Shown: piece by piece, positions 1,225 through 50,934 of the stretch
Numbering within the stretch: position 1 is the first letter of the stretch
How the letters are laid out: each line of letters starts with the position of its first letter
Source: Flavobacteriales bacterium
GTDB lineage: Bacteria > Bacteroidota > Bacteroidia > Flavobacteriales_F > PHOS-HE28
DNA length: 64,000 nt
Direction: 5' to 3'
NCBI GenBank assembly: GCA_013360395.1
Contig: JABWBQ010000018.1
Coordinates: 11,428 to 75,427, forward strand
The notes under the pieces: model-generated
Told to the model about the DNA's origin: nothing
Database searches by the model: none
Seen by the model: only the letters and a program-made list of their open reading frames with translations
Program-made: the position numbers and the translations under genes

Positions 1225-4200
1225 CCGTAATTCGCGCGGGCCACCTGCATGCAGCGCAGCAGCACCGCATCCAGCCTATCATAGTCCACGGTGCCGCCGA
1301 ACAGCTCGGGGTGCTGGAGTAATAGGTCCTCCACGGCGTTCTCCATGGCGCGTTGCACGTCCAGGTTGCGGTGCCAGTCCCGGATACGCCGCTGGCGGAT
1401 CAGGTCATCCACTTCCAGCGCAATGGTCCCGAGCCTATCCGACCATGCGGCACCATCACCCACGGGATCCAGCGCATCCTTCAGCACGCCGAAGAAGGCG
1501 CGCGCCTCGGGACGGCCTTGCACCCCGGCAGGGATGCCGCGCCCTACCCCGCTCTGCATGTCGCTCTGGATGCCCAGCACGCGCTGCAGGTACTCACGCT
1601 CATCGAGGCGCCCTTGGTGGAAGGCCTGGATGGTCTCCTCCACCATTTTGCTGAACGGTTTGTAGAAGCTCTCGTCCTTCTCCAGGTTCTCGGTGATGCT
1701 CCGCTTTAGGTTGTGCGCGATGGTGTCCGCCTTGGCCGCCACGCTTTGCTTGTCTTCGCCATAGTGGGCCAGCGCCTCGGCCACCATGTTCTCATTGAAG
1801 ATGTTCACCGTGGGCGTGGTGGACCGCACTTCACCGGCCCCGATGTGGCTGTCCAGCAATTTGCGGATGCGGCCTTCGTACTCGCGGTAGTTCACGCGGT
1901 CGTCGGCGTAGCGTTGCATGGCCGCCGTGCGCAGCGATTCGAACAGCTTCAGGTCCTTGCGCCATTGGTCCACGCGGCGCTCGTCGTAGCGGGCATAGAG
2001 GCCGGCCGTTCCGAATGCCATGTGCAACAGCCGTGCGAACAGGCTTAGGCGCTCGCGGAACTGGTCGCGGCGGTCGGCCGGTGCGAGGTGGCGCTGCAGC
2101 GCCTCATTGTCGTTGCGGTCCGCGCCGTTGAACACCGCCCACACCGCAGCGTGCGCATCCGGGAGTTTGGCCAGCTCCTCGTCCACGTCGTGCACCGTGT
2201 CCAAGAGGTCCTGTTCATCGAAGCCCGCGAGCGCATCGTAGAAGGTGAGCGCCTGGTCGAGCTTGCCGAGCAATCCGACGTAGTCGATGATGTGGCCGAA
2301 CTCCTTGCCTTCGAAAAGGCGGTTCACCCGGGCGATGGCCTGCAGGAGGTCGTGCCCGTGCAGCGGCTTGGCGAGGTACAGCACCGTGTTGCGCTCGGCA
2401 TCGAAGCCCGTGAGGTATTTGCTCACCACGATCAGCAGTTCCACCTCGCGCGAGGCGCTCTTGAACTTGTCGATCACCCAGGTCTCATACGTGGTCTGGT
2501 CGCCGTAGCGGTCCACGATGCCCTGCCAGTAGGTGCGGGCGCTCTCGCTGGCCTCGCTCCAGACATCGTCGTTCTCCTCGCGGGAATCGGGGGGTGTGAA
2601 GACCACCTTGCTGTTGAGCCGTAAGGCCGGGTCGGGCTGGTCCTCGAAGAAGCGCTGGTAGCGGATGGCGGTATCGATGGTGGGCACTGCCAACTGCGCC
2701 TTCAGTCCCGTGCCCTGCCAGGTGCCGCAATAGTGCTTGCTGATGTCGTAGGCCACTTCCTTCACCACTTGCTCGGCACTGAAGAGCTTGCCGATGCCGC
2801 GCGATCGGTTCTTCAAGGCCCTCTGCACCTCCTCCGGCAGGAAGCCGAACTGGCGGAAGAAGTCGCGGTCCAGCTCCTGCAACTTGGCGTAGAGCTGCGG
2901 GCTCCGGCCCTCGTAGAGCAGCGGCACCACGGCCTTGTCCGCCACGGCCTGCCGCATGGTGTAGGGCCTGATGAAACCGCCGAACTGCTTCACCGTGTTC
3001 TTGTCCTTGCCCAGCACCGGTGTGCCCGTGAAGCCGATGTAGCAGCCGTTGGGCAGCAGCTTGTGCATGGCCTGGTAGTTCAGGCCGTATTGGCTGCGGT
3101 GGCTCTCGTCCACCAGCACGAACACGTCGGTGCTCCGCTCCTTGAAGCCCCTGCGTTGCATGGCCCCCCGGAACTTGTTCACCACGGTGGTGATCACGGG
3201 CACGCCCTTGTCCTTCAGCAAGCGGATCAGGTCGCTGCTGCTGCTGGACTTCTCCACCTTCTTGCCGCAGTTCAGGAAGGTCTTGTGGATCTGCCGGTCC
3301 AGGTCCACGCGGTCGGTCACGAGCACCACGCGCGGATCGGCGATGGCTTTGTCCAGCGCCAGCGCCTTGCTCAGCATCACCATGGTGAGGCTCTTGCCGC
3401 TGCCTTGCGTATGCCAGATCACACCGCCCCGGCGCTTGCCGTCGGCATCCAGCTGGCGCACGCGCTCCAGGGCGTCCTGCACGGCGAAGTACTGCTGGTA
3501 GCGCGCCACCTTGCGCACGCCGGCATCGAACACGGTGAAGCGGTAGGCCAGGTCCAGCAGCCGCTCGGGGCGGCACAGCGCATAGAGCGCGCGGTCCTGC
3601 TCGGTGGGAAGCCGGTCCTCGGGCGGCCGATCTTCGTGCGGCCGGGCCAGCAGGTCCGTCACGGCGCGTTCCACGTCCTCCTTCCAGCCTGACCAGTACT
3701 TGGCCGGGGTGCCGGTGCAGGCATAGCGCACCTCGTTGGGCTGCGCGGCGATGAGCAATTGCGCGTAGTGGTAGAGCCGGGGCACGCCTTCCTCCCGCCG
3801 TTGATCGCGGATGTGCTGGCTCACCGCATCGTCGGTGCTCCACTTCACATCGCGGCGCTTGCACTGGACCACACCGAAGGGGATGCCGTTCACGAAGAGC
3901 ACCAGGTCGGGCCGGCGGGTGGCGTGCACGCCCTCCACGATGTACTCGTCGGTGACGTGGTACACGTTGTTCTGCGGTTTTTCCCAATCGATGTAGCGCA
4001 GGGTGAAGGCCTTCTGGTCGCCCGCCACGTTCTCGGCAAAACTCTTGCCCAGCGTGAGCAGGTCGTACACCTTCTCGTTGGTCTGCACCAGCCCTTCATC
4101 CGGCACGCGCTGCAGGGCCATGATGGCCGCGTTGATGCTCTGCGGGCTGAAGGGATACTCCTGCCCTTTGTAGGAAAAGCGGTTGATGGCCTTGAGCCGC

Positions 4201-7096: not shown

Positions 7097-7951
7097 TCAT
7101 GACTTCTTCCTGGGCTTGAGCTTCTTGGTGGTCTTGAGCACCTGCTTCCGTTCGGAGGCCAGCCGGCGCTTCACCTTCTCCAAGTCCTCAGCTGCTGGCA
7201 GCTCTTCCGGTTTCACCCCGCGCTTCAGGAGCATGCTGCGCACTTCCCAGTTATTGTCGATATGCTCCCGTGTGATAGCCCGGTCGCCCTTCAGGTCCTT
7301 CTCGTTCACGTTGTGGCTGGTGAGCTCTGCGGCGAAGTCCTTGGCCTTGATGGTGAGCGTAGGCAGGAAGTCGGCCAGCGGACGGCTGCCCGGCACGCCC
7401 AGCTTCTTCTTCATGGCCTGGGTGCCGTGGCCGCCGAACAAGGCGCGGTCCCCCTCGTGGCGGATGTTGGCGAAACTGCGCTCGTCCACCCCGCGCTCGT
7501 AGATGATGCCGCTGAGCTTGCGCTCGGTCTCCTTCAGCTTCTCGCGTGCCGCCACCCGGTCGCTCTCCAGGAGCCGCTGCTCCACCAGCTCCTGCCGGCG
7601 GGTCTGGATGGCGAAGTAGGTTTGGGCAAAAGCGATCTCGGGTTTGGCCGGGTCGCCGTTCTGCGCGATGAGGTAGCAGGCATAGCGGGTGAGGGCGAAA
7701 TCGTCGATCGGACGCTGGGCACCGCTACCCAGGTCGACCATTTTGTTGACGCCAACAAAATGGTCCGCTGCCGGCTCACCTGAGTTGGCGCATGCATCTC
7801 GTGCTTTCTCCAAGGCATTCAAGAAGTTACGCCAGTCCGTGTAGCCGAAAATGGCCTGCAGGTCGCGCGCGCTCCAGCATTCAATGCCTTCCATGGTGCC
7901 GCTGGCCGCCTCGAAGCGCTGCCAGAGTTCGTTGATGAGTTCCTTCTTCAT
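7097..7951 (-). CDS. dinD: DNA-damage-inducible protein D / RhuM-family protein
   Basis: Strong similarity to E. coli DinD (…ECWSARDL…RYACYLIAQNGDPAKP…AQTYFAIQTR). Start placed at Met 212 of the track ORF (MKKELINEL); the first 211 residues are a GC-rich shadow overlapping hsdM. Confidence 0.8.
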   Translation of the reverse strand: MKKELINELWQRFEAASGTMEGIECWSARDLQAIFGYTDWRNFLNALEKARDACANSGEPAADHFVGVNKMVDLGSGAQRPIDDFALTRYACYLIAQNGDPAKPEIAFAQTYFAIQTRRQELVEQRLLESDRVAAREKLKETERKLSGIIYERGVDERSFANIRHEGDRALFGGHGTQAMKKKLGVPGSRPLADFLPTLTIKAKDFAAELTSHNVNEKDLKGDRAITREHIDNNWEVRSMLLKRGVKPEELPAAEDLEKVKRRLASERKQVLKTTKKLKPRKKS

Positions 7952-11522: not shown

Positions 11523-12182
11523 ATGAAAACCAAGCTCTTCCTGGCAACGGCCCTCACCGCAGCGCTGACAGCTACCACGGCCTATGCGCAGCAGGGCCTC
11601 AACCTCAGCGTGAAGGCCATCGCCGCCAACAGCACCCTGCTCAACAGCGACGACTCCGACCTGGGCGCGCTCTACGACCGCCAATTCACCCTGGCACCGG
11701 CCTTCGGTCTGGGCGTGGGCTACGGCTTCACCGACAACCTGGGCATCGGCCTGGACGTGATCTACTCCATGCAGGGGCAGCGCTACGAGGTCCTGGGTGC
11801 CGAGCAGTTCCAAAAGAGCAACTACCTGAAGATCCCGCTCCTGTTCGTGTACAACACCGACCCCTCGAAAAGTGTGATGTTCATCGGCAAGGTGGGTCCG
11901 CAGCTGGGCCTGCTCACCTCCGCCAAGCTCAGCGACAACAACGGCAATGACCTGGTGGGCGACAACACGGACCGCTACAGCAGCACTGACTTCGGTGCGG
12001 TGCTCAGCCTGGGCGTGGGCTTCGGCCTCAGCGACAACCTGCGCCTGAGCGCAGCGGTGCGCGGCGACTACGGCTTCACCAACGCCGAGGACGAGGACGC
12101 CCTGTTCCACCCGGCCGGCCGTGCCACCACCAACAACCTGACCACGGGCCTGGAAGTGGGCCTGACCTACCTGTTGAACTGA
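11523..12182 (+). CDS. Small outer-membrane beta-barrel protein (OmpA-like/porin-family fold)
   Basis: Signal peptide (MKTKLFLATALTAALTATTAYAQ). Alternating amphipathic G/Y/F-rich strands. Ends with a hydrophobic C-terminal strand (LTYLLN). Confidence 0.6.
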   Translation: MKTKLFLATALTAALTATTAYAQQGLNLSVKAIAANSTLLNSDDSDLGALYDRQFTLAPAFGLGVGYGFTDNLGIGLDVIYSMQGQRYEVLGAEQFQKSNYLKIPLLFVYNTDPSKSVMFIGKVGPQLGLLTSAKLSDNNGNDLVGDNTDRYSSTDFGAVLSLGVGFGLSDNLRLSAAVRGDYGFTNAEDEDALFHPAGRATTNNLTTGLEVGLTYLLN

Positions 12183-27831: not shown

Positions 27832-28642
27832 GGCGGGCCGGATCGGACAAAGAAAGGGAGATGCGGTGGGGGAAAGGCGGGGCTTCCCCGGTGCCGATGT
27901 CCGCATAACGCACATCGGCCTGTTGATCGTGCGCCAGGTCGCTCACCAGCACGCGCACCACGCGGAACCCATCGGGCTCCACCCAGTAGCGCAGCACGAC
28001 GGCCTCGCGTTCCCCCGCCTTGCGCAGGGTGCGCTCCAGGCGGCGTTCGTTCATGGGGCGCTCGTTGGCCAGGGTATCGTCCGGCAGGATGTCCTCGGCG
28101 GCGCGTACGAAACGCCTGCGCTCCCGGCTGGTGAGCACGTAGTGCCCATCCTCCCGGTCCACGCGGTACCTGGCCTGGGGATCGAGCCCGATGGGTCGGC
28201 CCAGAAGCGCCTGCTGCAGCAGGTCGAGGTCGGGGTCGATGCCGAAGCGGGCCCAGGCACTGTCGCGGTCTCCCAGGAAATAGCTGTCCTTCAGCCGGTC
28301 GAGCAGTTTCACACTGTCGGTGGTCACCAGGGCCCGTGCGACCTCGATACCCAGGGCCGGTGTGATGCTCACCCACACGGCGCTGTCGGCCACGGACCGC
28401 ACCGTACTGCGGAAGGAGCGGGCGGCATCGGCCATGGTCAGTTCCACATCGGCCTTGGCGCTGAAATAGCGGGGTTGCGGAGGCAGGACGCGGAACACAT
28501 GCTCCACCACGCGCTCGGCCGAGCGCAGGGGCAGTTCGCGGTCGGCCTGGAACACCTTCTTCACGGGCCGGCAGCCCAGGGCCAGCAGCAGCAGGAGGGC
28601 AAGAGCGGTATGGGCCGGGCGGACCATGGGCCGCAACATCAT
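27737..28642 (-). CDS. DUF4292-like lipoprotein
   Basis: Lipobox (LLLLLALGC). Conserved Bacteroidota gene order TPR-DUF4292-M23. 4-nt overlap with the TPR gene stop. Confidence 0.55.
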   Translation of the reverse strand: MMLRPMVRPAHTALALLLLLALGCRPVKKVFQADRELPLRSAERVVEHVFRVLPPQPRYFSAKADVELTMADAARSFRSTVRSVADSAVWVSITPALGIEVARALVTTDSVKLLDRLKDSYFLGDRDSAWARFGIDPDLDLLQQALLGRPIGLDPQARYRVDREDGHYVLTSRERRRFVRAAEDILPDDTLANERPMNERRLERTLRKAGEREAVVLRYWVEPDGFRVVRVLVSDLAHDQQADVRYADIGTGEAPPFPHRISLSLSDPARHASGTLQLSRIDTLGPLQLPFRVPERFVPME

Positions 28643-30438
28643 TCGGGCGGGCGCCCGGCGCTGACCTTGCTGCCGATGGCGTCGCTGGCCCCGCCCAAGG
28701 CCATGGCTTTGCGCCACTGCTCCACGGCACCGGCCTGGTCGCCCAGCGCGTAGAGGATGTCGCCGTAGTGTTCCACCACTTCGCCGCTGGTGGCCCCACC
28801 GCTGGCCAGGGCCTTCTCGATCCAGGTGCGGGCCTCCGCGTGGCGGCCCATGCGGTGCAGCACCCAGGCATAGGTGTCCTCGAAGGAGGTCTGCCCGGGG
28901 GCCAGCTTGTTGCTTTGATCGCTCATCTCCCGGGCACGCTCGAGCTTCTCCCCGCGCAGGCTCAGGTAATAGGCGTAGTTGTTGAGGGTGGTGGCGTTGT
29001 GGGGGTCCAGCCGCAGGGCCTGGTCGAAGGCCTCGTCGCTGCGGTCGTGTCGGCCGGCGGCATGGTTGGCATCGCCCAGGCTGGTCCAGAAGGAGGCCAG
29101 CAGCGGATCGTTGTCCACCACCAGGTCGCGCCCGGTGATCAGGGCCTCGATCGCCGGGTCGAAGGCCTTGAGCTGGGTCTGTGCGATCCCCAGGTAGAGC
29201 CAGGGCTCGGGGCTGGTGGGGAAGAGCTCGGTGGCGGCCTGGGCATCGTCGCGAAGACCGGCATGATCTCCGGCCTGCAGGTCCATTTGCAACACCTGCA
29301 GCCAGATGGGGAACTTGTCCCGTTCGTGGTCCAGGGCCTTGCGGAAGGCATCGCGAGCCTCGGCCATCCGGCCGTCGCGCATCAGGAAATCGCCGCGGAT
29401 GGTGCTGGGCTTGCCGCTTTCCGGATGGGTGCGCTCCAGCACGTCGATCAGGGCGTACGCGCGGCGCACCAGGTCCCTGCTTGCAGCGGTATCCCCGGTG
29501 GAGCTCAGCTCAAAGAAGCCCAGCAGCACCTGCACCTTGGGGTCCACCTCCAGGTCCGGATCGCCGAAGGCCAGGGCGAGCTGCGCGAAGGCGGGGTCCA
29601 TGTCGCCCTTGGCATAGTGGTGCTCGGCCAGGGCCAGGCGGGTCATGCTGTCGTCCGGATCGGTTTCAAGCACACGGCGGTAGAGGTCCAGGGCCTTGTC
29701 GCTCTCCCCCATCTCATCGCACAGCTCGGCCAGCATGCCCATGTAGCCCACATTGTCGGGGTCGTCCTGCAGGGCGGTCTCCAGCACCTGGCGGGCCTCC
29801 TGCAGCTTGCCGGCGTTGGCCAGCATGCCGTACTCCTGGGACACCACCTCCTCATTGTTCCCCAACCGGGCGCGGATATCCTTGAACACCTTGCGCGCAT
29901 CGTCGATGCGGCCGGCCATGGCCAGCGTGTGGGCCAACTGGAACCGCACTTCGTGCCGCTCGGGCCAGCGGTCCACGATCCCTTGGAAGGCCTCGGCCGA
30001 CCGGTCGAGCTGGCCGTACTGGCCGTAGAGGTCGGCCAACAGGAACCGGTACCAGATGTTGTCCGGGTCGGTGGCCTGTGCTTTCCGCGCCCAGGCGAGG
30101 GCCTCATTGGGCCGCTGCTGCATGTGCAGCAGCTTGGCCAGCTCGAACATGGCGGCGTGGTTGTCGGGGTCCAGCCGCAGGCATTGCTCGAAATGTGCGA
30201 CGGCCTTGCCCGGCTGGCCATTGAGGCGGGCCTGGGTGGCGTCCATGAACAGGCGCATCACACGCGCCCGCTGATCGCTGGCCTGGGTGTGGTCGCCGGG
30301 ATCGCCATGGCCGCCGGGCGGGGCCCCTACGGTGGCGTGCCGCGCGCCGCCGCAGGCCGTGGCCAGCACCAGCAGGAGGCTCAGGAGCGGAAGGGGACGG
30401 CGCATGGGCGGGGGTCCGAGGGTCGTGTCCGCGGCCAT
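28639..30438 (-). CDS. Tetratricopeptide-repeat lipoprotein (599 aa)
   Basis: Signal/lipobox (LVLATACGG) followed by multiple TPR units. Confidence 0.8.
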   Translation of the reverse strand: MAADTTLGPPPMRRPLPLLSLLLVLATACGGARHATVGAPPGGHGDPGDHTQASDQRARVMRLFMDATQARLNGQPGKAVAHFEQCLRLDPDNHAAMFELAKLLHMQQRPNEALAWARKAQATDPDNIWYRFLLADLYGQYGQLDRSAEAFQGIVDRWPERHEVRFQLAHTLAMAGRIDDARKVFKDIRARLGNNEEVVSQEYGMLANAGKLQEARQVLETALQDDPDNVGYMGMLAELCDEMGESDKALDLYRRVLETDPDDSMTRLALAEHHYAKGDMDPAFAQLALAFGDPDLEVDPKVQVLLGFFELSSTGDTAASRDLVRRAYALIDVLERTHPESGKPSTIRGDFLMRDGRMAEARDAFRKALDHERDKFPIWLQVLQMDLQAGDHAGLRDDAQAATELFPTSPEPWLYLGIAQTQLKAFDPAIEALITGRDLVVDNDPLLASFWTSLGDANHAAGRHDRSDEAFDQALRLDPHNATTLNNYAYYLSLRGEKLERAREMSDQSNKLAPGQTSFEDTYAWVLHRMGRHAEARTWIEKALASGGATSGEVVEHYGDILYALGDQAGAVEQWRKAMALGGASDAIGSKVSAGRPPE

Positions 30439-30507
30439 ACCGGCTCAATGTAGCCGGTGGTGGCCGGGATGTTCAGGGGTACAAAGGTCGCAAATCGGCG
30501 GGCCGGC

Positions 30508-31515
30508 TCAGCCCACGGCGGCATCGTCGCCCAGGCTCAGGTCCAGGGCCCGGCCGGTCACGGTGGCCCGCGCGCCGATCATGCTGTTGTCCATCACGCA
30601 GTCCTGTACACGGACCCCGCCGCGCAGGATCGAGTTCTTCACGACGCTGCCGGAGATGACCGCCCCGGCCTCGATGGACACGTTCGGCCCCACGATGCTG
30701 TTGGTCAGCGTCACGTTATCGCCGATGAAGCACGGCTCGATCACCACGCTGTTCTCCTGCTTCACGGAACCGCTCACGAGGTCCTTCGCACCCTTCAGGA
30801 AACCGAGCACCTTGGTGTTGGTGTCCACCATGGCGTTCTTGTTGCCGCAGTCCATCCACACGTCCACCGCCCCGGCCTTGAAGCGCGCGCCCTTGCGCTT
30901 CATGTTCTCCATGGCGTTGGTGAGCTGGTACTCGCCCTTCTCCTTGATGTCGTTGTCGATCAGGTACTGCATCTCCGTCCGGAGGCGCTCCCCGTCGGCG
31001 AAGTAGTAGATGCCGATGATGGCGAGGTCGCTGACGAACTCCACGGGTTTCTCCACGAACTCGGTGATGAGGTCCTTGTCGTCGAGCTTCACCACGCCGA
31101 AGGGGCGCGGGTCATCCACCTTGTTCACCCAGATCACGCCGTCGCAGTCCTTGTCCAGCTTGAGCTGGGCCCGGAAGAGGGTGTCGGCGAAGGCCACGAT
31201 CACGCGGCCGCTCAACGCGCTTTGGGCGCAGAGGATGGCATGTGCGGTGCCGAGGGCTTCCTTCTGGTAGTGGATGCTGCCCTTGCTGCCGATGGCCGTG
31301 GCGATGGACAGCAGGTCCTTCTCCACCTGGGCGCCGAAGCTGGGGTGAATGATGTAGGCCACCTCTTCCACGGGTTCGCCGGCCACGGCGGCGAGGTCCT
31401 CCACGAGGCGTTGCACGATGGGCTTGCCGGCGATGGGCAGCAGGGGCTTGGCGGTGGTGTGGGTGTGCGGGCGCATGCGCTTGCCCATACCCGCCATGGG
31501 GACGATGATCTTCAT
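30508..31515 (-). CDS. Sugar-phosphate nucleotidyltransferase with C-terminal left-handed beta-helix domain
   Basis: N-terminal NTP-transferase G-x-G-x-R-x-P-like motif (MAGMGKRMRP). C-terminal hexapeptide repeats. Confidence 0.8.
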   Translation of the reverse strand: MKIIVPMAGMGKRMRPHTHTTAKPLLPIAGKPIVQRLVEDLAAVAGEPVEEVAYIIHPSFGAQVEKDLLSIATAIGSKGSIHYQKEALGTAHAILCAQSALSGRVIVAFADTLFRAQLKLDKDCDGVIWVNKVDDPRPFGVVKLDDKDLITEFVEKPVEFVSDLAIIGIYYFADGERLRTEMQYLIDNDIKEKGEYQLTNAMENMKRKGARFKAGAVDVWMDCGNKNAMVDTNTKVLGFLKGAKDLVSGSVKQENSVVIEPCFIGDNVTLTNSIVGPNVSIEAGAVISGSVVKNSILRGGVRVQDCVMDNSMIGARATVTGRALDLSLGDDAAVG

Positions 31516-31627
31516 CTCAAGGGTCAGGGTTCACCACAGGGACACAGAGGGCACCGAGATCTGCATTGGGTCTCATTCCTCCGTGTTCTCTGTGCCTCGG
31601 TGGTGAATGTATCCGGCGCGAAGATCT

Positions 31628-32086
31628 TCATTTTGTGCCAGTATGCCCGAAGCCGCCGGCCCCGCGTGCTGACGAGGTGAGGTCGGCCGCTTCCCGCCAT
31701 TCGGCGCGCATGTACCGGGCGATCACCAACTGGGCCACCCGTTCGCCATCGTTCACGGTGAAGGCTTCTTGGCCGTGGTTGATGAGGAGCACGCCCACCT
31801 CGCCCCGGTAGTCGGCGTCAATGGTGCCGGGGCTGTTGAGCACGGTGACCCCGTGCTTGAGGGCCAGACCGCTGCGGGGGCGCACCTGGGCCTCGGTGCC
31901 TTCGGGGAGTTCCAAAAAGAGGCCGGTGGGGATCAGGGCGCGCTGGCCGGGAGCGAGCACCACCGATGCATCGAGGTTGGCGCGCAGGTCGAGGCCGGCA
32001 CTATGCGGCGTGGCGTACTGAGGCAGCGGGTGCCTGCCCTTGTTCACGATGCGGACGGGAGGCATCTCCGTGTCGGTGGCGTTCAT
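31628..32086 (-). CDS. dut: dUTP diphosphatase
   Basis: All dUTPase motifs present ([42 protein letters not shown]). Start at MNATDTEM (32086) or MPPVRIV (32065). The N-terminus lies inside direct-repeat copy 1. Confidence 0.85.
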
Positions 32087-32100
32087 GCGGGCAAAGGTCG
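32010..32100. repeat. Direct repeat copy 1 (91 bp, 2 mismatches to copy 2). Contains the flippase 3'-end codons and the dut start/first ~25 codons
   Basis: Aligned by eye: tggcgtactgag[g/a]cagcgggtgcctgcccttgttcacgatgcggacgggaggcatctccgtg[t/g]cggtggcgttcatgcgggcaaaggtcg. Confidence 0.8.
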
Positions 32101-32123
32101 CTGTGTACGCTACATTTGGAACT

Positions 32124-32357
32124 GTGAATGCCAAGAACCACACACTTCAGGTCGTCATCGAACACGACAAGGACGGCTACTTCGCCTTTGTGCCCGAGTT
32201 GAAGGGTTGCCATACGCAGGGCGATACGCTGGACGAGGTGATGAAGAACATCAAGGAGGCGATCGATCTGTACTGGAGCACGCTTCGTCCGGCGGAGATC
32301 AAGCGGATCACGAAACGGCGGGTGTTCACCACGTCAATGCCGGTGAGCGTTGGCTAA
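32124..32357 (+). CDS. hicB: HicB-family antitoxin, short form (N-terminal RNase-H-like fold only)
   Basis: …[46 protein letters not shown]… matches the HicB/UPF0150 consensus. GTG start at 32124 is in frame within track ORF 32040-32357. Confidence 0.7.
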
Positions 32358-32541
32358 GCAGGTGGTCCTTACGGCCAAGGAGGCCGAGAAGCTGTTGTTG
32401 AAAGCCGGGTTCGTATGGGTGCGCACGAGCGGCAGCCATCGCGTTTACATGCGAGGGAATGTGCGCGTGGTGCTGCCCTTCCATGCGGGCAGGTCGCTGC
32501 ACCCGAAGATCGTGAAAGAAGTGCTGGAGGCGACCGAGTGA
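32350..32541 (+). CDS. hicA: HicA-family mRNA interferase toxin (63 aa)
   Basis: …LLKAGFVWVRTSGSHRVYMRGNVRVVLPFH…, the YcfA/HicA dsRBD-like motif with catalytic His. 8-nt overlap with hicB. Confidence 0.75.
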   Translation: MAKQVVLTAKEAEKLLLKAGFVWVRTSGSHRVYMRGNVRVVLPFHAGRSLHPKIVKEVLEATE

Positions 32542-32775
32542 GTCTGCATCGCCGATCCTCAACTCAACGAGAAGAGGAAGCATGCTTCCGCGCCATGCCT
32601 GCGTTCACCTCCCACGCCAGTTCATCCACCTTGGCTTGGGGCACGTCCATGCCCTTGGTCAGGTCCAAGCAGCGCAGATAGTCAAGTGCGCGTGCAGATC
32701 GGTGGGGTCTATGCCTACGCTCAAGGTGATGACCACCTCGTTCTTCTCGCCGCGTGTGACCTTCAAGGCCATGCT

Positions 32776-32898
32776 TCAAAAGTAAGCGATCGCGAAACGG
32801 GACCGGTCGGCGCAGTGGGAGGTGGCGTACTGAGACAGCGGGTGCCTGCCCTTGTTCACGATGCGGACGGGAGGCATCTCCGTGGCGGTGGCGTTCAT
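32776..32898 (-). pseudogene. Truncated dut 5' fragment. The first ~26 codons are identical to dut, followed by unrelated sequence and a stop after 40 codons
   Basis: Hand translation gives [40 protein letters not shown]. Its ATG overlaps the flippase TGA stop (ATGA), exactly as the real dut start does in copy 1. Confidence 0.6.
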
Positions 32899-32912
32899 GC
32901 GGGCAAAGGTCG
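32822..32912. repeat. Direct repeat copy 2 (91 bp), 812 bp from copy 1
   Basis: See copy 1. This copy contains the true flippase stop codon. Confidence 0.8.
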
Positions 32913-34385
32913 GAGCGTTGTACGCTCCCTCCGCCATACCATCACCATAAAGAGCACGAGCACCAGCGCCCGTACCCCGTACGTCGCCACTCCCTCCAGC
33001 GGCACCTGCTCACAGCCCCACCACAACACCACCGCGCCCGCCATGTACAGCAGCACGCGCGTCACGTTGTAGGGAATAGGGTAGTGTTTCTGCCCCCACA
33101 CGTAGCTGATCGCGGCCATGCTCGCGTAGCAGATCAAGGTGGCCCACGCCGCGCCCATGTAGCCCAGCGAAGGGATCAGCGCGAAGAGCAGCACGATGGT
33201 GATGGCCGCGCCGATCAAGCTGATGGTGCTGCCCACACGCGGCCGGTCGGTGAGCTTGTACCACACGCTCTGGTTGTAATAGATGCCGAGAAAGACGTTG
33301 GCCAGCATGAGGATCGGTACCACACGCAGGCCCTCGTGGTAGGCCGGATTGGGGATGAACCACTTGAACAGGTCCAGGAAGAGCATCACCACCAGGAAGG
33401 CGCTCATGCACACGGCCACGAACACATTCATGATGCGGGCGAAGGTCTCGCGACTGTTCTTCTCCTTGGCGTGGTTGAAGAAAAAGGGCTCGGCGCCCAT
33501 GCGGAAGGCCTGGATGAAGAGCGTGATGAGTACGGCCAGCTTGTAGCACGCGCCGTAGATCCCGAGCTCACTGTCGGCGACGTCCTTGGGCAGCAGGTAC
33601 TTCAGGATCACGCGGTCGGCCGTTTCGTTCACCATGCCCGCGAGGCCGGCCACCATGAGGGGCGCCCCGAAGGCCAGCAGCGCGCGCAACAGCTCCCGGT
33701 TGAAGCCGCGGAACGCGGGCCACGACGGCAACAGCACCAGCAGCTTCACGGCAGTGCTGGCGAGGTTGATGGCGAACACATAGCCCACGCCCAGCGACGG
33801 GTCGTACACGGCGTCGATCAAGGCATCGCTGGCGCCCATGTTGTACCGCTTCATGCAGTACAGCAGGAAGAAGAGGCTGAGGGCGATGTTCACCCCCACG
33901 CTCAGCAGGTTGATGAAGGCGTACTTCCAAGGACGCCCCTGTTGCCGCAGCCGCGCCATGGGGACGGCGGTGATGGCGTCGATGCCGATGATGAGCGCGA
34001 GCATGAGCACCGAGCTCGCGTAGGCCCCGAAATGCAGGCCCTCGGCGATCTGCGCGGAGAACACGGTGCCCAGCACCATGAAGGCGAGGGCCGGGAAGAA
34101 TAGTCCCCAGGTGGCGGTACTGTACAGCACGGATCCCTGGTCGGGGTTGTCCCGCACATGGTCCTTCGCGGCGAAACGGAAGTAGGCGGTCTCCATGCCG
34201 AAGGTGAGGATCACGTTGAGCAGGGCCGTCCACGAATACAGCGCGGTGACCACGCCGTACTCCGCCGGTTCGAACACGAACTGGCTGGTGTACAGCGGCA
34301 CCAGCAGGAAGTTGAGGAAGCGCGCAACGATGCTGCTCAGCCCATAGATGGCCGTCTGTCCGGCAAGTTTTCGGAGGGCGCTCAT
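32895..34385 (-). CDS. MOP-superfamily polysaccharide/oligosaccharide flippase (Wzx/MurJ-like), 496 aa
   Basis: 12-14 TM helices and a polysaccharide biosynthesis protein N-terminus. Confidence 0.8.
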   Translation of the reverse strand: MSALRKLAGQTAIYGLSSIVARFLNFLLVPLYTSQFVFEPAEYGVVTALYSWTALLNVILTFGMETAYFRFAAKDHVRDNPDQGSVLYSTATWGLFFPALAFMVLGTVFSAQIAEGLHFGAYASSVLMLALIIGIDAITAVPMARLRQQGRPWKYAFINLLSVGVNIALSLFFLLYCMKRYNMGASDALIDAVYDPSLGVGYVFAINLASTAVKLLVLLPSWPAFRGFNRELLRALLAFGAPLMVAGLAGMVNETADRVILKYLLPKDVADSELGIYGACYKLAVLITLFIQAFRMGAEPFFFNHAKEKNSRETFARIMNVFVAVCMSAFLVVMLFLDLFKWFIPNPAYHEGLRVVPILMLANVFLGIYYNQSVWYKLTDRPRVGSTISLIGAAITIVLLFALIPSLGYMGAAWATLICYASMAAISYVWGQKHYPIPYNVTRVLLYMAGAVVLWWGCEQVPLEGVATYGVRALVLVLFMVMVWRRERTTLRPLPA

Positions 34386-34681
34386 GGCTTCAGTCGGCTC
34401 TCCGGATCCATGCGACCGTGCAGCACTCTTATGATCTCAATGGTCCGGTCCGTGTGGTCCGGTCGGTAGAACACCACATGGGATCCGGCCTTCAGGCCAA
34501 GGTAGCCTAGGCGAACATGGCCGAAAGTCTTGCCAGCACCGGGGTCGCGCTTGATGCGGTCGAAGGCATCGAGGATCAAGCGTACATACCGGTCGGCCTG
34601 TTCCACTGACCAATGCTCGACCGTGTACAGCCAGATGCCCTCGAGGTCATCGGCCGCAGCACGGCTGACGATCAGCCTCAT
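34382..34681 (-). CDS. parE: ParE/RelE-family toxin
   Basis: Typical ParE sequence (…AADDLEGIWLYTVEHWSVEQADRY…IEIIRVLHGRMD). 4-nt overlaps with the parD stop and with the flippase start. Confidence 0.8.
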   Translation of the reverse strand: MRLIVSRAAADDLEGIWLYTVEHWSVEQADRYVRLILDAFDRIKRDPGAGKTFGHVRLGYLGLKAGSHVVFYRPDHTDRTIEIIRVLHGRMDPESRLKP

Positions 34682-34929
34682 CCCTTCCTGGCGTGCTTCT
34701 GGTGAAGGCCCTTCAGGAAGGTGTCCCCATCAAAGTCGGGCATGAACCCGGAGCGCTCCCCCTTCTTCAACTCCTTGATCAGGCTTTCCTTCCTCGTTTC
34801 CTCCACCTCGAACAGCCGCAGCGCCGCACGGATCACTTCGCTTACGGAGGTGAACCTGCCGGACTTCACTTGCTTGGCCACGAACGATTCGAAGTGGTCG
34901 CCCAGGAGAATGGATGTGTTCTTGCCCAT
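34678..34929 (-). CDS. parD: ParD-family (CC2985-type, RHH) antitoxin
   Basis: MGKNTSILLGDHFESFVAKQVKSGRFTSVSEVIRAALRLFE matches the ParD antidote family. Confidence 0.75.
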   Translation of the reverse strand: MGKNTSILLGDHFESFVAKQVKSGRFTSVSEVIRAALRLFEVEETRKESLIKELKKGERSGFMPDFDGDTFLKGLHQKHARKG

Positions 34930-35128
34930 GGTTCAGTGATCAACGCGAAGATACCATGATCTGGTATTACCGGAACCGCAAGGCTGGAGGACCGGCGAGT
35001 TTTCGGAGGGCGCTCAAGACAGTGGAAGTTCGACCACGGATGAACCCAAATGGACACAGCTGGAGAGGCCGGGGTGCATCACCGACCGATGGATATCGGA
35101 TCCGTGTTCACCCGTGCCCATCTGTCGT

Positions 35129-35911
35129 TCAAGCACCCGTGAAATCCGCCTTGCGCTTCTCCATGAACGCGCTCGTCCCCTCCTTGAAATCAGGTGTGCC
35201 GAAGCACTTGCCGAACTCCTCGATCTCGCGCTGCATGCCGTTCACACCGGGTTCGTAACCGGCGTTCACCGCGCGGATGGCGGCGGCGAGCGCGGTGGGG
35301 CTGTTCTTCAGGATGGCGCCGGCCAGCTCGTTGCATTTCGCCGTCAACTGGTCCTGGGGTACCACGTGGCTCACCAGGCCCCATTGCAGGGCTTCATCGG
35401 CCTTGATCATGCCGGCGGTGAAGATCATCTCCATGGCCTTGCCCTTGCCCACCAGTCGGGCCAGGCGCTGTGTGCCGCCGTAGCCGGGGATCACGCCGAG
35501 CGAGACCTCGGGCAGGCCCATGCGGGCGTTGTCGCTCGCCACGCGGATGTGGCAGCTCATGGCCAGCTCCAGTCCACCGCCGAGCGCAAAGCCGTTCACC
35601 GCGGCGATCACCGGCTTGCTCATGTTCTCCACATGATCGAAGAGTTTGCGTTGTCCATCGGCGCTGAGCGCGCGGCCTTCCTCCACGCTGAAGTGGGCGA
35701 ACTCCTTGATGTCGGCACCCGCCACGAAGGCCTTGGGACCGCTGCCGGTGATGATCAGGACGCGGACCTTCTTGTCGGCATCAGCTTCGCTCAGAGCGCG
35801 ATCCAGTTCATCGATGGTGGCGCGGTTCAGCGCGTTGAGCTGGTCGGGGCGGTTGATGGTGATGGTGCGGATGCCCTCGGCATCGGACACCAGGAGGTTA
35901 TGGTATGACAT
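35129..35911 (-). CDS. Enoyl-CoA hydratase/isomerase (crotonase family)
   Basis: Crotonase fold motifs (…AFVAGADIKEF…, …NGFALGGGLELAMSCHIRVA…). Confidence 0.85.
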   Translation of the reverse strand: MSYHNLLVSDAEGIRTITINRPDQLNALNRATIDELDRALSEADADKKVRVLIITGSGPKAFVAGADIKEFAHFSVEEGRALSADGQRKLFDHVENMSKPVIAAVNGFALGGGLELAMSCHIRVASDNARMGLPEVSLGVIPGYGGTQRLARLVGKGKAMEMIFTAGMIKADEALQWGLVSHVVPQDQLTAKCNELAGAILKNSPTALAAAIRAVNAGYEPGVNGMQREIEEFGKCFGTPDFKEGTSAFMEKRKADFTGA

Positions 35912-35929
35912 CAGGTCAAAAGTATCCGG

Positions 35930-38900
35930 CTATCGGGTAAGGGGGATGGTGATGCTGAACGTGGTGCCCTCGTCCACGTTCGTGGAGAAGCTCACACTCC
36001 CACCCGCCTGTTCCACCATGCGCTTCACCATGGCCAGGCCCAGGCCCATGCCGCTGCCCTTGGTGGTGAAGCTGGGGGTGAAGATGCGCTCGCGCACCTC
36101 TTCGGCGATGCCCGTGCCGTTGTCGCGCACCTCCACCACGGCGCGGTCGCCGGACCGGAACGCGACCACTTCGATGCGGCCCGGTCGACCATCGGGGATC
36201 GCCTGCACAGCGTTCTTCAGCAGGTTGTTCAACACGCGCAGCATGTGCTCCCGGTCGGCCATGACGGGCAGTTCCGGGGGTTCGGGCACGGTGATGGTGG
36301 TGCCGGGGGTGGCCTGGAAGACGGCCGTGGCGGCACGCAGAACCTCGCGCAGGTCGAGGGGTTCCGGTCGGGCGGGCGGCATCTGCGCGAACTGGCCGAA
36401 GGCGGTGGCCACACCGTTCAGCGCATCGATCTGTTGCACCAGGCCCGCACTGAGTTTTTCCAGCCTCTCCCGCGCATCGGGCGCGGCCGGGTCCCAGCTG
36501 CGCTGGAACTGCTGGATGCTCAGCTTCATGGGGGTGAGCGGGTTCTTGATCTCGTGCGCCACCTGGCGGGCCATTTCGCGCCAGGCGCTCTCGCGTTCGC
36601 TGCGGGCGAGCTTCTCGGCACTGGCCCGCAACTCCTCCACCTTGCGGTTGTACACTTCCACGAGCCGGCCCACCTCGTCCTCGCCCCGGTACCGCAGGGG
36701 CACATTGGCCCCGGTGAGCGCCACGCGCGCCAGGCTCTCCTTGAGGCGGTCCAGCGGACGGGCCGTCCAGTTGCTGATGAACACGGCGACACCGACGCTC
36801 AGGGCGAAGAACAGGACGAACAGGTTGACCACCGCCACGAGCACCGAGGCGCGTTCGCGGTCCTGCAACGCCTGGTCGGCGAAGGAGGGCAGGCCCAGGA
36901 AACCGAGCAACACGCCCTGATCGTCGCGCAGGGGCATGTAGGCCGTGCGGTGAAGGGCTCTGCCCAGGGATTCGTCGTGCACATAGGCGTTGGCCCCGCC
37001 GAGCACCACTTTCAGATAAGCGGCCGGGTCCATGCGACGGCCCAGGAGACCCGCATTGAAGAGCTGCGGCCGCGAGGAGGACAGCAGGCGTCCATCACGA
37101 CGGTACACGTGGATGTCCGTGAAGAACACGTTGCTGAGCCGTCCCAGCAAGTGGTCCAGGTAGGCGTCGGTGCTGCCCTTGAGGGGCCCCGCGCCGTCCA
37201 GCCGGCGTTGCAGCTCGGCATGCACGCTGCGGGTCTTCTCCAGCAGGGCAGCGGTACTGCGTTCCTCGTAGGAGCGCTCCAGCAAGCGGCGCGCACCGAG
37301 CCCGAAGAACACCAGCCCCAGGAGCGAGAAGCCCACCAGGGCGAGCCGCACCTTGCCCGCGATGGTGAGCCCGGGCAGGCCCTGGTTGCGGACCAGGGCG
37401 CGCACCACGATGGCCAGGCCCAGCATCAGGCTGAGGAAGGCGAACAGGTAGCTGAACCCGGTGGCCCGGTCCAGCCAGCGCGCGGGCGGCACGCGCAGCA
37501 CCACCAGGGACCGGACCGGGTCGCCGTAGGCCCGCACCCCCTGTGGTGTGCGCAGGCTGTCCCAGCGCACCGGCAGCGGGCCCGCCCCCGTCTGCTCCAC
37601 CAGCTGTCCATCCTCGTACCGCCCCCAGTCGTACCGGTCCACGCGCTGGTCCAGCGGATCGCGACCGGCGAGCAGCAATTCGGGGAACCCAAGCCCCTCG
37701 GGCACCAGGCGAGGGTGCAGTTCCAACACGAGCTGCGCGGGCTCCAGGGTGTCCGCAGGCATGATGGCCAGTCTCGCGTGGCGATAGGTGCGGCCGGCCT
37801 CGTCGGTGGATTGGTGCAGGTCCGGCATGTCGGCCGCAGCCAGCACCCGCAGGCCTTGGGTAAGTGGGCCCGTGCCCGCCGTGGGCAGGGCGGCATCGGT
37901 GGCGCAGCGCAGGCGGCCGTCGGTGCCGTAAGCGAAGAGGCGCACATCGTAGCGCTCCCAGTACCCGGTGAAACGTTCCTGCCGCACGGTGCGGTCCAGG
38001 TCGGCCGCGGTGCATACGGCCGTGTCCGTGAGCAGGCGGTAGAGGGCCGGGTCCGTGCGCAGGCTGGGGGCCACTTCGCGGAAGAGCAGCTCCACCACCG
38101 GGTCCTCCTGGGTCAACAGTCGTTCGGCCACCGCCTGCCGGGTGCGCTCCTCGCGTGCATCGACCGCCCTCGCGATCACCTGGGCGCACAGGGCCGCGAT
38201 CACCGAAAGCGCGAGAACGGCCTCGGTGAAGCCAGGACGGCGTGTGCGCAAGGAGAGGGCCAGCGCGAGCAGGGGCAACGACCAGAAAGCCTCCAACAGG
38301 CCCGGGGGCGCGGAGGGCCAGCGCAGGGCCAGGTTGAGGACAAAGGCGATGGCCAGCCCGATGGTGTTGTGCGCCAGGGTCTGCCGGTGCACGAGCCGCG
38401 CCCACAGGTCGGCCAGCAGGCACCAGGCAGCGAACAGCAGGGCCACGGCGCCGAGGGCCAGGAAGCTGTACCGGTCGAAGGCCTCGATGTGGCGCAGGTC
38501 GAGTTCGATGCGGCTGTCGCTCACCAGCCCTTGGACGATGTTCGTGAGCATGTCCGCCGCCAGCAGTAATGCCAGCGGGAGGAGCACGGTGCCCAGGCGC
38601 CCGGCCCTCCCTTGTGGTGGCAAGGGTTCGCGGAAGGCGATCCGCAGATAGGCCGCGACCAGCACCAAGAACACGGCGTGGATGAGCAGGTCGCCCAAAG
38701 AGGGCAGCCAGGCCGAACTGGCATAGAGCCCTGGATCGAAGACCCGGAAAAGGCCTTGGTCCGGCAGGTTGCCGAAGCTGATACCCGCCCATCGCAGCAC
38801 CAACAGCACCACCGGGAACAGCGTTGCGCCGGCCCAAGGACCGTGGTCCCGCTGCACGCGCACCGCCAGTCGCCAGGTGGTCAGGATCAGCAGGACCAGG

Positions 38901-50846: not shown

Positions 50847-50934
50847 GCGTGGTCGACGGCGCGCACCGGCCGGGTGGAAAAACCGGGGGGCCGCCCCGCA
50901 ACGGGACGGCCCCCCGGCCTTGGTCGTTCGTGGC

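Follow-up and report, generated by a model that had tools for sequence, protein, structure and literature searches.

How small toxin-antitoxin (TA) cassettes move within chromosomes without a mobility gene is poorly understood. The locus described here, part of a 64-kb stretch of Flavobacteriales DNA that was analysed as a whole (the window, 64,000 nucleotides), raises the question in a concrete form: a hicBA pair lies between a flippase gene and dut, the gene for dUTPase, and is bracketed by two near-identical copies of the junction between these genes. What brought the pair there, and why is the junction present twice? With its 100-plus relatives, the locus forms a natural series of empty sites, single and stacked cassettes, decayed antitoxins and orphan stubs.

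The direct repeat and its flanking genes

A repeat search of the window recovered a 108-nt direct repeat (31993–32100 and 32805–32912; 92% identical, spacing 812), within which the alignment delimits a core of 91 nt (32010–32100 and 32822–32912) with two mismatches, exactly the difference that the original prediction had read from the letters. The self-comparison that it had asked for returned this pair as the one long near-identical direct repeat of the 64-kb window; the runner-up at close range measures only 33 nt at 91% identity, and chance is therefore excluded for the 91-nt repeat. Copy 1 spans dut codons 1 to ~26–31 plus 14 nt upstream and continues into intact dut (31628–32086, minus strand; 152 aa, Pfam PF00692 dUTPase, E = 9.9e-33), whose first 77–94 nt form most of it. 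Copy 2 lies at the true end of the flippase gene (32895–34385, minus strand; putative MOP-family polysaccharide biosynthesis flippase of 496 aa, Pfam Polysacc_synt, E = 3.1e-15) and continues into a dut stub, an open reading frame (ORF) of 40 codons (32776–32898, minus strand) that tblastn aligns to dut residues 1–30 at 87% identity (E = 8e-13). Stub codons 1–26 are almost the same as those of dut, and the remainder is degraded, up to an old junction at codon 37. GCATGA, the overlap of flippase stop and dut start, is present in both copies, the stub start overlapping the true flippase stop (ATGA); this overlap and the different continuations of the two copies had been predicted correctly. Directly upstream of the dut ATG is a 15-nt relic of the flippase 3′ end, GCGACCTTTGCCCGC (32087–32101, minus strand), which accompanies hicBA in relatives, stands directly before dut in L025, L042, L037, L036 and L100, and forms the genuine end of the flippase gene at empty sites. 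In L015 and L059, a single flippase-end/dut-start is the match for both repeat copies. The unique sequence of the insert amounts to 721 bp; the insert has a lower G+C content (55–60% versus 65–70%), and the repeat search of the window detected no terminal inverted repeats of the insert.

The source being a metagenome-assembled genome (MAG), and short-read graphs breaking at the repeat, assembly or binning could in principle have joined two strain variants. The probability of such an artefact is negligible: the identical arrangement occurs in two independent MAG assemblies (GCA_021463405.1, L001; GCA_019187595.1, L002), and the sister species L012 (flippase 94% identical) has it too. Contigs L010 and L011 run from hicA/hicB into dut, the two mismatches tell the copies apart, and 91 bp is probably below typical short-read length, which we assume. 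The seven Logan contigs listed as ending downstream of the flippase (L003–L009) stop 35–40 nt beyond it, exactly 40 nt in six cases, where a k=31 graph must branch at the 91-bp repeat. On Logan contigs the dut protein is identical and adjoins hicB.

Two cassettes between the repeat copies

The sequence between the copies had been described as an 812-bp hicBA insertion with hicB-hicA on the opposite strand. Coordinates and Pfam matches agree with the presence and orientation of the pair: hicB (32124–32357, plus strand; antitoxin of 77 aa from GTG; HicB_lk_antitox PF15919, E = 1.1e-8, 35.7 bits) is followed by hicA (32350–32541, plus strand; toxin of 63 aa from TTG; HicA_toxin PF07927, E = 1.1e-12, 48.2 bits; cut-off 27 for each), which overlaps the hicB stop, the two genes sharing 8 nt. 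By domain content and gene overlap, the pair is a predicted type II HicAB toxin-antitoxin system. The ATG of hicB in relatives reads AAG here, and GTG is the probable start. In L012, hicB is 100% and hicA 98% identical; hicB identity is 78–89% in L025, L042 and L067, and its homologs form about 50 clusters at 73–92% identity, those with a source name being Flavobacteriales bacterium.

The notion of a single cassette does not stand. The 812 bp hold two, namely the intact hicB-hicA and a pseudogene of a 70-aa antitoxin, here called X (32585–32772, minus strand), which was missed at first and came to light by tblastn: the X protein of L055 matches the window in two HSPs, at 60% and 76% identity in frames −2 and −1 (joint E = 2e-18), and aligning the DNA with that of L055 and L012 also places the pseudogene. 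Its frameshift is a 1-nt deletion common to L012, and it occupies the 264 bp between hicA and the stub. X, like several other cargo ORFs, has no Pfam match. Its partner in relatives is a PIN_2 toxin (Pfam, E = 2.6e-25), for which tblastn found no match in the window.

In relatives, X-PIN_2 is usually preceded by a dut stub. Specifically, L055 and L092–L097 have the order stub-X-PIN_2-dut, with the stub-X junction at dut codon 37, as in the window; this junction is intact in L055, where GCCAAC meets CGCTACTTTTGA, and degraded in L092–L097, and L098 has a decayed stub. The same parts are stacked otherwise in L100 (flippase-X-PIN_2-stub-Y′-hicA-hicB-tail-dut). Across a survey of X covering three of 12 X-family clusters and three further metagenome loci, all loci with sufficient flanking sequence had X next to dut or a piece of it, which is what homology-bound spread predicts; a metagenome scan with X matched four loci, one of them previously known, and the junction statistics are thin. 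Stop/start coupling shows at three points: flippase and stub share ATGA, the stub TGA is separated by 3 nt from the X ATG that follows, and the dut ATG of relatives overlaps the PIN stop.

Promoter-like boxes were read with TAnnTTTG, which we take to be the Bacteroidetes −7 promoter box. One match, TACATTTG (32111–32118, plus strand), lies 5 nt before the probable hicB GTG and represents a putative hicBA promoter; boxes of this kind also precede hicB in L025 and L109, and X and Y in relatives. The X cassette has a −7-box-like TACTTTTG (32777–32784, minus strand) 4 nt upstream of the X ATG, its last two bases overlapped by the stub TGA, and TAnnTTTG is conserved 5–8 nt upstream of X in L055, L092, L098 and L100. 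Within the 15-nt flippase relic, GACCTTTG is TAnnTTTG with one mismatch and may be a putative promoter upstream of dut. A scan for sigma-70 promoters, with a model that does not cover Bacteroidetes promoters, returned none, terminator-like hairpins were weak, and Rfam gave no match at E ≤ 0.1 in 31000–35500, that is, no structured RNA in the insert.

Empty sites and cargo in relatives

Among 80 related loci compared, the flippase abuts dut or lies within ~30 nt of it in about 20 (including L015, L016, L021, L022, L026, L032, L045, L050, L057–L059, L064, L068, L072 and L074), the gap being 0 in L015, L021, L050 and L058. These empty sites, the very comparison that had been proposed as a check, identify the segment as inserted DNA. 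The original prediction would have given way to an ancient tandem duplication had all relatives carried the same arrangement with diverged repeats; instead, empty sites are common. At the junction, other relatives carry higBA, DUF6364/PIN_3 or non-TA genes, and this variety of cargo, together with the empty sites, marks the flippase-dut junction as a hotspot. L037 (higBA) and L042 (hicBA) have different cargo within identical flanks. Two unrelated cargoes join dut 3 nt apart, at +111 and +114, and the right edges of dut repeats vary (+77, +111, +114 and at least +141). No duplication without cargo was found among the relatives, and neither a circular or excised form nor a same-species empty-site variant was observed.

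Several relatives (L025, L042, L067 and L102–L106) have hicBA at the flippase-dut junction without a dut stub, and in other species such stub-free hicBA sits ~17 nt upstream of the dut ATG. In L025, L042 and L067 its dut-side boundary equals the window's copy-1 edge, directly upstream of GCGACCTTTGnnnnnATGA, a position that falls in the last six flippase codons, outside dut. At a second locus, upstream of NIF3, hicBA has no flanking repeat. That hicBA always makes flanking repeats is ruled out by the NIF3 locus and by L025, L042 and L067.

As originally noted, nothing integrase-like is nearby: among the genes called within ~6 kb either side of the locus (DUF8202, HisKA/HATPase, ECH, ParD, ParE, flippase, HicA, HicB, dUTPase, NTP_transferase, TPR, DUF4292 and Peptidase_M23) there is no integrase or transposase, nor, near the locus, a cognate recombinase as a site-specific integrative element would have. 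No recombinase was found around 30 X/hicBA places in relatives or in ten gap ORFs, most cargo ORFs of the 80 loci being unannotated. The argument that 91 bp is too long for a transposase target-site duplication holds, and the insert also lacks terminal inverted repeats; with no transposase nearby and a repeat of 91–128 nt that is variable among relatives, insertion of a transposon or IS is ruled out. Large gaps 3′ of the flippase in L019, L031, L034, L041 and L047 reflect a different gene order; an integrase-bearing element in these gaps is ruled out by that difference, and two of their ORFs read as sigma/anti-sigma factors. At that position L112 has CHAT and T9SS-tail genes.

A second repeat at the flippase start

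A parD-parE cassette (34382–34929, minus strand; Pfam ParD, E = 4.5e-28; ParE, E = 8.3e-19) lies directly upstream of the flippase, with the parE stop overlapping the flippase ATG, and is a second cassette of like architecture in the same operon. It is 80–81% identical to that of L012, versus 94% for the flanking genes. The flippase start is repeated here: the proximal copy (34360–34384) corresponds to bases 2–26 of the flippase ORF and the distal copy (34992–35016), in the ech-flippase intergenic region upstream of parD, is the original flippase start, the sequence upstream of it matching the native leader of L020, L021 and L023. These 25-nt copies are 96% identical at a spacing of 632, and the repeat extends to 53 nt in L012. 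Repeat-cassette-repeat arrays upstream of the flippase reach four copies in relatives (L039, L055). Of the 38 additional copies of the flippase start, 33 have their left edge precisely at the start codon; the measured right edges range from +19 to +82, a spread that rules out a strictly site-specific right edge. L013 has a repeat of 141 nt from the ech 3′ end. By eye, no motif is common to the three duplicated targets (ech 3′ end, flippase 5′ end and dut 5′ end).

Origin of the repeat

The codon 37 junction ties the left edge of the repeat to the X-PIN_2 cassette, and its right edge goes back to the point at −17 where hicBA inserted. Since hicBA has its edge at −17 without a stub and the stub is tied to X, the two edges stem from two separate events. 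The 98%-identical 91 bp are a homogenised core inside an older duplication of ~128 bp (−17 to +111). Past +77 the stub is degraded, and L012 has the same degraded sequence; the L012 repeats are more diverged (105 nt, 91%) and its stub contains a stop codon. With distal stub decay and X frameshift common to L012 and the core near-identical, the repeat must have two ages. Identity between the window and L012 is a mosaic of 70–100%, in which a tract of 95–100% runs from ~33410 to 32010 and falls to 83% just beyond the repeat, indicating a recombination tract that ends in the dut 5′ end.

Within one genome, stub and real dut are 93–95% identical (L055, L092 and L100), versus 63–83% between genomes, and stubs are much closer to their own genome's dut than to other stubs. 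In L055 and L100, the first ~30 nt (the first 10 codons) of stub and real dut are unrelated and identity begins sharply at ~+31; the copy in native context retains the flippase tail and the other overlaps the PIN stop. The two copies are therefore of different origin, joined inside a conserved segment. Such likeness within a genome, combined with differing first 10 codons, points to homologous recombination or gene conversion rather than staggered-cut duplication; gene conversion and repeated independent homologous integration predict one and the same similarity pattern within a genome.

The reading that we favour, with a probability of about 0.6, is that the repeat is the scar of TA cassettes piling up stepwise where flippase stop and dut start overlap in a compact operon. 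An X-PIN_2 cassette would have arrived with a copy of the dut 5′ end attached, leaving the flippase, then a stub (−17 to +111) that had been the original dut start, X-PIN_2 and a regenerated full dut. A hicBA unit, bringing along the last 15–17 nt of the flippase, would then have replaced the PIN_2 toxin and the PIN-linked dut start, after which the lone antitoxin X would have decayed; the reverse order of these two steps is possible. Finally, the stub and the true dut start would have recombined or undergone gene conversion, so that −14 to +77 became homogenised into the 91-bp repeat. Host homologous recombination is the most likely enzymology: a cassette with a piece of a conserved essential gene may form a circle, or may pair with that gene in a related genome, and one crossover of Campbell type would integrate it and duplicate the homologous piece while the essential gene stays intact, selection retaining only arrangements that preserve dut and the stop/start coupling. 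The 91-bp repeat could drive precise RecA-dependent loss of the 812 bp, which a working HicA toxin would penalise. The choice originally left between site-specific and homology-driven capture thus falls best on the latter; no recombinase was called within ~6 kb and the edges vary, both against the former.

Originally, one event had been proposed to put hicBA ~26 codons into dut and regenerate the target, a scheme that the stub-free hicBA and the X-linked stub contradict. Its fuller form, in which the hicBA-bearing 721-bp segment entered dut at ~26–31 codons and staggered breaks with fill-in produced a long target duplication, draws on the 98%-identical repeat that brackets the whole insert and on the long, variable target duplications without mobility genes documented for restriction-modification units (PMC2853133). 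It is quite improbable, given that elsewhere hicBA occurs without any stub at the identical dut-side boundary, that the degraded stub reaches to codon 37 and abuts the X pseudogene, a junction that intact relatives keep in distant species, and that the repeat is of two ages. Still less probable is an old tandem duplication of flippase-end/dut-start, with unrelated insertions later arriving between the copies and one copy decaying; the sharing of the arrangement with L012, where the repeats are more diverged and the stub has a stop codon, would suit it, but the junction that terminates the stub belongs to the X cassette alone and is conserved with it across distant species, empty sites dominate in relatives, and no locus compared shows flippase-stub-dut without cargo.

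That the cassettes are miniature non-autonomous integrative elements, with att sites copying the dut or flippase 5′ end and a recombinase encoded elsewhere, is unlikely, although it retains some weight: the four-copy arrays of L039 and L055, left edges of homology that coincide with the start codon in 33 of 38 copies, the two dut junctions only 3 nt apart, and the different cargo of L037 and L042 within identical flanks all speak for it. Against it are the lack of a called recombinase within ~6 kb, around the 30 related places and in the ten gap ORFs, the varying right edges (flippase, dut and the 141-nt ech repeat of L013), the three targets that by eye share no motif, and the hicBA upstream of NIF3 without a flanking repeat. 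Somewhat more doubtful is a dedicated mechanism of cassette capture, integron-like in function, with a trans-acting enzyme targeting the first codons of conserved operon genes. Flippase-start copies that each head a different cassette, up to four in number, would fit it, as would left edges fixed at the start codon, different cargo within identical flanks, and cargo ORFs that are fused in frame to flippase codons 1–17 or end in the TGA of xTGAGC. Undirected recombination would not be expected to give start-codon edges in 33 of 38 copies unless translational coupling is under strong selection, and the L037/L042 pair would also suit a directed exchange mechanism.

Under stepwise pile-up, the cassettes would ride on a fragment of an essential conserved gene, so that ordinary homologous recombination can place them in related genomes with the gene unharmed. 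For annotation, the locus teaches that a 40-codon ORF can be a stub, that a pseudogene can lie beside hicA, and that MAG assemblies break at such repeats.

Relation to known systems

Chromosomal integron arrays, such as the Vibrio superintegron, are rich in TA cassettes. Both there and here, small and often TA-type cassettes between similar repeats are gathered at one locus; unlike in integrons, no IntI was called near the locus, the repeats are coding 5′ ends of flippase/dut and not attC hairpins, and no R′/R″ (GTTRRRY) cores were seen by eye in the repeats examined. SCC and pseudo-SCC arrays at rlmH, and CIMEs at the ends of tRNA or protein genes, arise by tandem accretion of integrative elements, with defined att cores and identifiable serine or tyrosine recombinases. 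They share with the present locus cassette arrays bounded by repeats that copy a conserved gene's end, some cassettes lacking a recombinase, whereas the present repeats have variable edges and no recombinase was called near the locus.

Campbell-type single crossover of a circle carrying a gene fragment duplicates exactly that fragment as direct repeats around the insert and makes the copies chimeric, one joining a resident 5′ part to an incoming 3′ part and the other the reverse. Chimeric copies of this kind are seen in L055 and L100. Campbell-type or homology-facilitated integration of transforming DNA is familiar chiefly from laboratory use or as an uncommon event, whereas here it would be how TA cassettes naturally pass between related genomes, by way of a hypothetical circle.

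By analogy, the nearest known counterpart is the insertion with long target duplication of restriction-modification (R-M) systems (Nobusato et al. 2000, Gene 259:99; Furuta, Abe and Kobayashi 2010, NAR, PMC2853133); beyond these Kobayashi-group papers, we found no other relevant literature on TA cassettes and duplication. The R-M insertions have direct repeats of 30 to >400 bp, variable in length and derived from a single-copy target, with no transposase or integrase; gene fusions can form at the junctions, the repeats can drive amplification or loss, and the mechanism was left open (PMC2853133). In both cases a small addiction-type unit is missing from the empty site of relatives, and the present repeat likewise exceeds 30 bp (91–108 nt) on one single-copy target, around an insert with no mobile-element genes and, at 721 bp unique, far below 20 kb. 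The locus differs in its cargo, type II TA pairs and some non-TA genes in place of R-M genes; in its history, two cassettes of different age with edges from two events instead of one insertion, which the older stub-X-PIN_2-dut unit (L055, L092) does fit; in its target, the start of an essential gene in a translationally coupled operon, reused by many cargoes; and in its copies of different origin, which favour homologous recombination. The locus would thus extend insertion with long target duplication from R-M to TA systems in uncultured Bacteroidota and suggest a mechanism for it; it belongs to a known kind of rearrangement and is not a new kind of system.

A duplicated flippase-dut junction around hicBA

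The pair of near-identical 91-bp direct repeats noted earlier is confirmed. The repeat search of the window returned them as a single family of 108 nt (31993-32100 and 32805-32912; 92% identical, spacing 812), within which pairwise alignment delimits a 91-nt core with two mismatches; beyond it, identity falls to 11/17 and then lower on the dut side, and only a short, looser likeness is seen on the flippase side. A whole-window scan and self-BLAST recovered this repeat and nothing comparable elsewhere in the window, the runner-up among close-range direct repeats being 33 nt long and 91% identical. ORF and Pfam searches place the dUTPase gene (dut, 31628-32086) and a Polysacc_synt (MOP-family) flippase gene (32895-34385) on the minus strand, with a HicB-like antitoxin (32124-32357) and a HicA toxin (32350-32541) on the plus strand between them. 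A 40-codon ORF duplicating the dut 5' end (the stub; 32776-32898, minus) starts with an ATG overlapping the flippase TGA. The G+C content of the insert is 55-60%, versus 65-70% in the surroundings. The window also holds a 41-nt direct repeat (11704-11744 and 12004-12044; 85%, spacing 300) and two palindromes, 30-35 nt long and perfect or nearly so (7736-7765 and 50883-50917).

The exact flippase protein is present on 23 contigs. An assembly artefact is ruled out by the same arrangement in two NCBI MAGs (GCA_021463405.1 and GCA_019187595.1; L001 and L002), by the matching layout of a sister species (L012; flippase 94% identical, repeat 105 nt, 91%) and by contigs on which hicA and hicB are linked to the exact dut protein. 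Among the short-read Logan contigs listed, the seven that terminate downstream of the flippase (L003-L009) do so 35-40 nt beyond its end, six of them at exactly 40 nt; because 49 identical bases separate the two core mismatches, a k=31 graph must branch there.

Separate origins for the two repeat edges

The 264-bp segment that separates hicA from the stub matches X, a 70-aa antitoxin of the related locus L055, in two frames (identities of 60% and 76%; joint E 2e-18), with a 1-nt deletion common to the window and L012; no trace of X's partner, a PIN_2 toxin (Pfam E 2.6e-25), was found in the window. The repeat is 81 nt long in L055, where the order is flippase, 347-aa ORF, dut stub, X, PIN_2, dut. 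DNA alignment places the stub-X junction identically in the window, L012 and L055, at dut codon 37 (...GCCAAC, then CGCTACTTTTGAAGC..ATG), and TACTTTTG, X's own -7-box-like element, is kept upstream of X everywhere. The X family is small (12 clusters), and, wherever the flanking sequence is long enough to tell, X adjoins dut or part of it: as stub-X-PIN_2-dut in L092-L097 (83-nt repeat, 90%), beside a decayed stub in L098, as flippase-X-PIN_2-stub*-Y'-hicA-hicB-tail-dut in L100 (82-nt repeat, 94%) and as further variants in L116, L117 and L119. The 488-aa gene upstream in L092-L097 (hicB'-stub-X-PIN_2-dut; for example, L092 150-1616) was recorded with a Fic-domain hit, not Polysacc_synt. Given the X pseudogene and these junctions, the window reads flippase, stub, X pseudogene, hicA-hicB on the opposite strand, a 15-nt flippase tail and dut. 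The stub belongs to a second, decayed cassette (X) and not to hicBA, with the left edge of the repeat set by the X cassette and the right edge by the hicBA insertion point.

In three relatives (L025, L042 and L067), hicBA lies between flippase and dut without a dut stub. Its dut-side boundary there corresponds to window 32100/32101: the cassette stops just before (C/G)GCGACCTTTGnnnnnATGA, a sequence that, as in empty sites, comprises the final five or six codons of flippase (LRPLPA*) and the ATG of dut. In these species the flippase merely gains a new short tail. The original prediction that hicBA inserted into dut and duplicated its target is thus not borne out. The higBA pair of L037 and the L036 cargo are inserted at the same point. 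The hicBA unit is minimal: it spans the hicA stop to a TAnnTTTG-like box lying a few nucleotides ahead of hicB. Close homologs of HicB (73-92% identity) fall into about 50 clusters; one widespread allele again lies between dut and flippase, another adjoins dut even where the flippase is separated from it, and a third occurs upstream of a NIF3-family gene, with stop/start overlap. At the NIF3 locus (L107-L111; hicB at 3001-3225, beside a DUF2281/PIN pair), hicBA is 79% identical and has no flanking repeat; no hicA is called at L107, L108 or L110, three of the five sites, the L107 frame looking largely intact by eye. Stub-less at the flippase-dut junction and repeat-less at NIF3, hicBA insertion as such therefore makes no long duplications. 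Where relatives start hicB with ATG, the window and L012 read AAG and have 7 nt inserted (window 32124-32140), and a GTG at 32124 is the only plausible start in the window sequence; the product is 77, 84 or 95 aa long depending on the gene caller.

Insertion hotspots in the operon

The empty site expected in relatives was found: among 80 flippase loci from Flavobacteriales MAGs (a scan of species-representative genomes; contig names suggest wastewater or activated sludge as the source of several), dut follows flippase directly or almost directly in about 20 (gap 0-30 nt). At other loci, varied cargo of 0.3-1.9 kb fills the junction. Besides hicBA, it comprises higBA (L037 and L038), DUF6364 with PIN_3 (L024), X with PIN_2 (L055), a HicB-like/HicA-like pair recognized by eye with no Pfam hit (L060), an opposite-strand ORF of ~495 aa, T9SS-like by eye (L020, L023, L046, L048 and L056), and lipoprotein-like ORFs (L014 and L027). 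Identical flanks (left ...GGGTGATCAG, right CCGGAWCCATT GCGACCTTTGACCCCATGA) enclose higBA in L037 (6495-7146) and hicBA in L042 (6516-6953), the cargo having been swapped with both boundaries kept. Directly downstream of the flippase, a Cryomorphaceae MAG (L087 2846-4090) carries dense 40-136-nt repeats of 85-100% identity. A perfect 3982-bp inverted repeat in L068 (2950-6931), with ntp-dut-flippase facing flippase-dut-ntp, is most likely a palindromic assembly artefact.

The junction between the enoyl-CoA hydratase gene and flippase is a second hotspot, often holding parDE. In the window, parD-parE (34382-34929, minus) directly precedes flippase, whose ATGA includes the parE stop, and is bracketed by a 25-nt repeat (96%) of the flippase start (34360-34384 and 34992-35016); the latter copy, 53 nt in L012, lies in the native leader, ahead of parD. 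Identity to L012 is only 80-81% for ParD and ParE, against 94% for flanking genes. The parDE pair is a second cassette of the same architecture in the same operon. Relatives carry one to three extra flippase-start copies, each heading a different cassette; across L012-L074, arrays hold up to four copies of the initial ~20-80 nt of the ORF, each before a different small cassette (L039 537/975/2101/2805; L055 3341/3972/4615/5001; L035 3081/3785/5001). The left edge is the start codon in 33 of 38 copies, the right edge falls at +19 to +82, and flippase codons 1-17 form an in-frame fusion with several lipoprotein-like ORFs of the cargo. In L013, a 141-nt duplication (96%) of the enoyl-CoA hydratase 3' end (1657-1797 and 2438-2578), a third duplicated gene end in this operon, brackets parDE.

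TAnnTTTG, the Bacteroidetes -7 promoter box, occurs 4-8 nt upstream of the starts of the hicB, X and Y cassettes (window; L025, L055, L092, L098, L100 and L109), with putative boxes of this type at window 32111-32118 (+) and 32777-32784 (-). The conserved flippase tail GACCTTTG (window 32092-32099, minus) takes the same position upstream of dut, a possible reason why every insertion leaves the final 17 nt ahead of dut intact.

Origin and upkeep of the duplication

Stub and real dut are 93-95% identical in their conserved part within L055, L092 and L100 and 63-83% identical between genomes, even though these share an orthologous X junction. The two copies of L055 and of L100 are unrelated over their first ~30 nt (variable N-terminal codons), and identity begins abruptly at about +31 from the dut ATG; the native-context copy keeps the flippase tail, whereas the other opens with an ATGA that overlaps the stop of PIN. 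Such chimeric copies would be expected if a circle or repeat-flanked fragment carrying a foreign dut 5' end recombined with the resident dut inside the conserved segment. The window repeat has two ages, -14 to +77 being 98% identical and +77 to +111 degraded alike in L012 and the window. Between these two, nucleotide identity is strongly mosaic (70-100% in 100-nt steps across window 27900-38400): it stays at 95-100% between about 33410 and 32010 and drops to 83% just past the repeat, indicating frequent homologous exchange across this region.

Within-genome similarity, copies of different origin, two ages and mosaic identity argue for homologous recombination over a staggered-cut target duplication. 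Repeat edges also differ from locus to locus, and, in line with the earlier remark that nothing integrase-like is nearby, no recombinase gene was called within about 6 kb; with the four observations, these favour RecA-mediated integration. Integration would have been Campbell-type or homology-facilitated, probably followed by gene conversion and by selection that preserves both dut and the stop/start coupling. Of the two routes originally suggested, site-specific and homology-driven capture, the latter is thus favoured; the single hicBA event is not, since two cassettes lie between the repeats and the edges differ in origin. Undirected recombination alone does not fully explain the fixed left edge of the flippase-start copies, the in-frame fusions and the L037/L042 swap. 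A directed capture mechanism may lie behind the flippase-start regularities and the swap, but strong selection for translational coupling is the preferred account.

Comparison with known systems

The locus is a composite scar in a hotspot of toxin-antitoxin accretion, of interest mainly for the comparative series, which suggests how such cassettes spread. Transposons and integrons fail on the tested features, as do classical integrative elements, for which no recombinase gene was called within about 6 kb of the locus. The closest described phenomenon is the 'insertion with long target duplication' of restriction-modification gene complexes (Nobusato et al. 2000; Furuta et al. 2010, PMC2853133), small addiction modules between long, variable direct repeats of a single-copy target, with no mobility genes, sometimes with gene fusions and with the mechanism left open (PMC2853133). 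The older stub-X-PIN_2-dut unit has the defining features of that phenomenon, and the window repeat shares all of them except origin in a single event.
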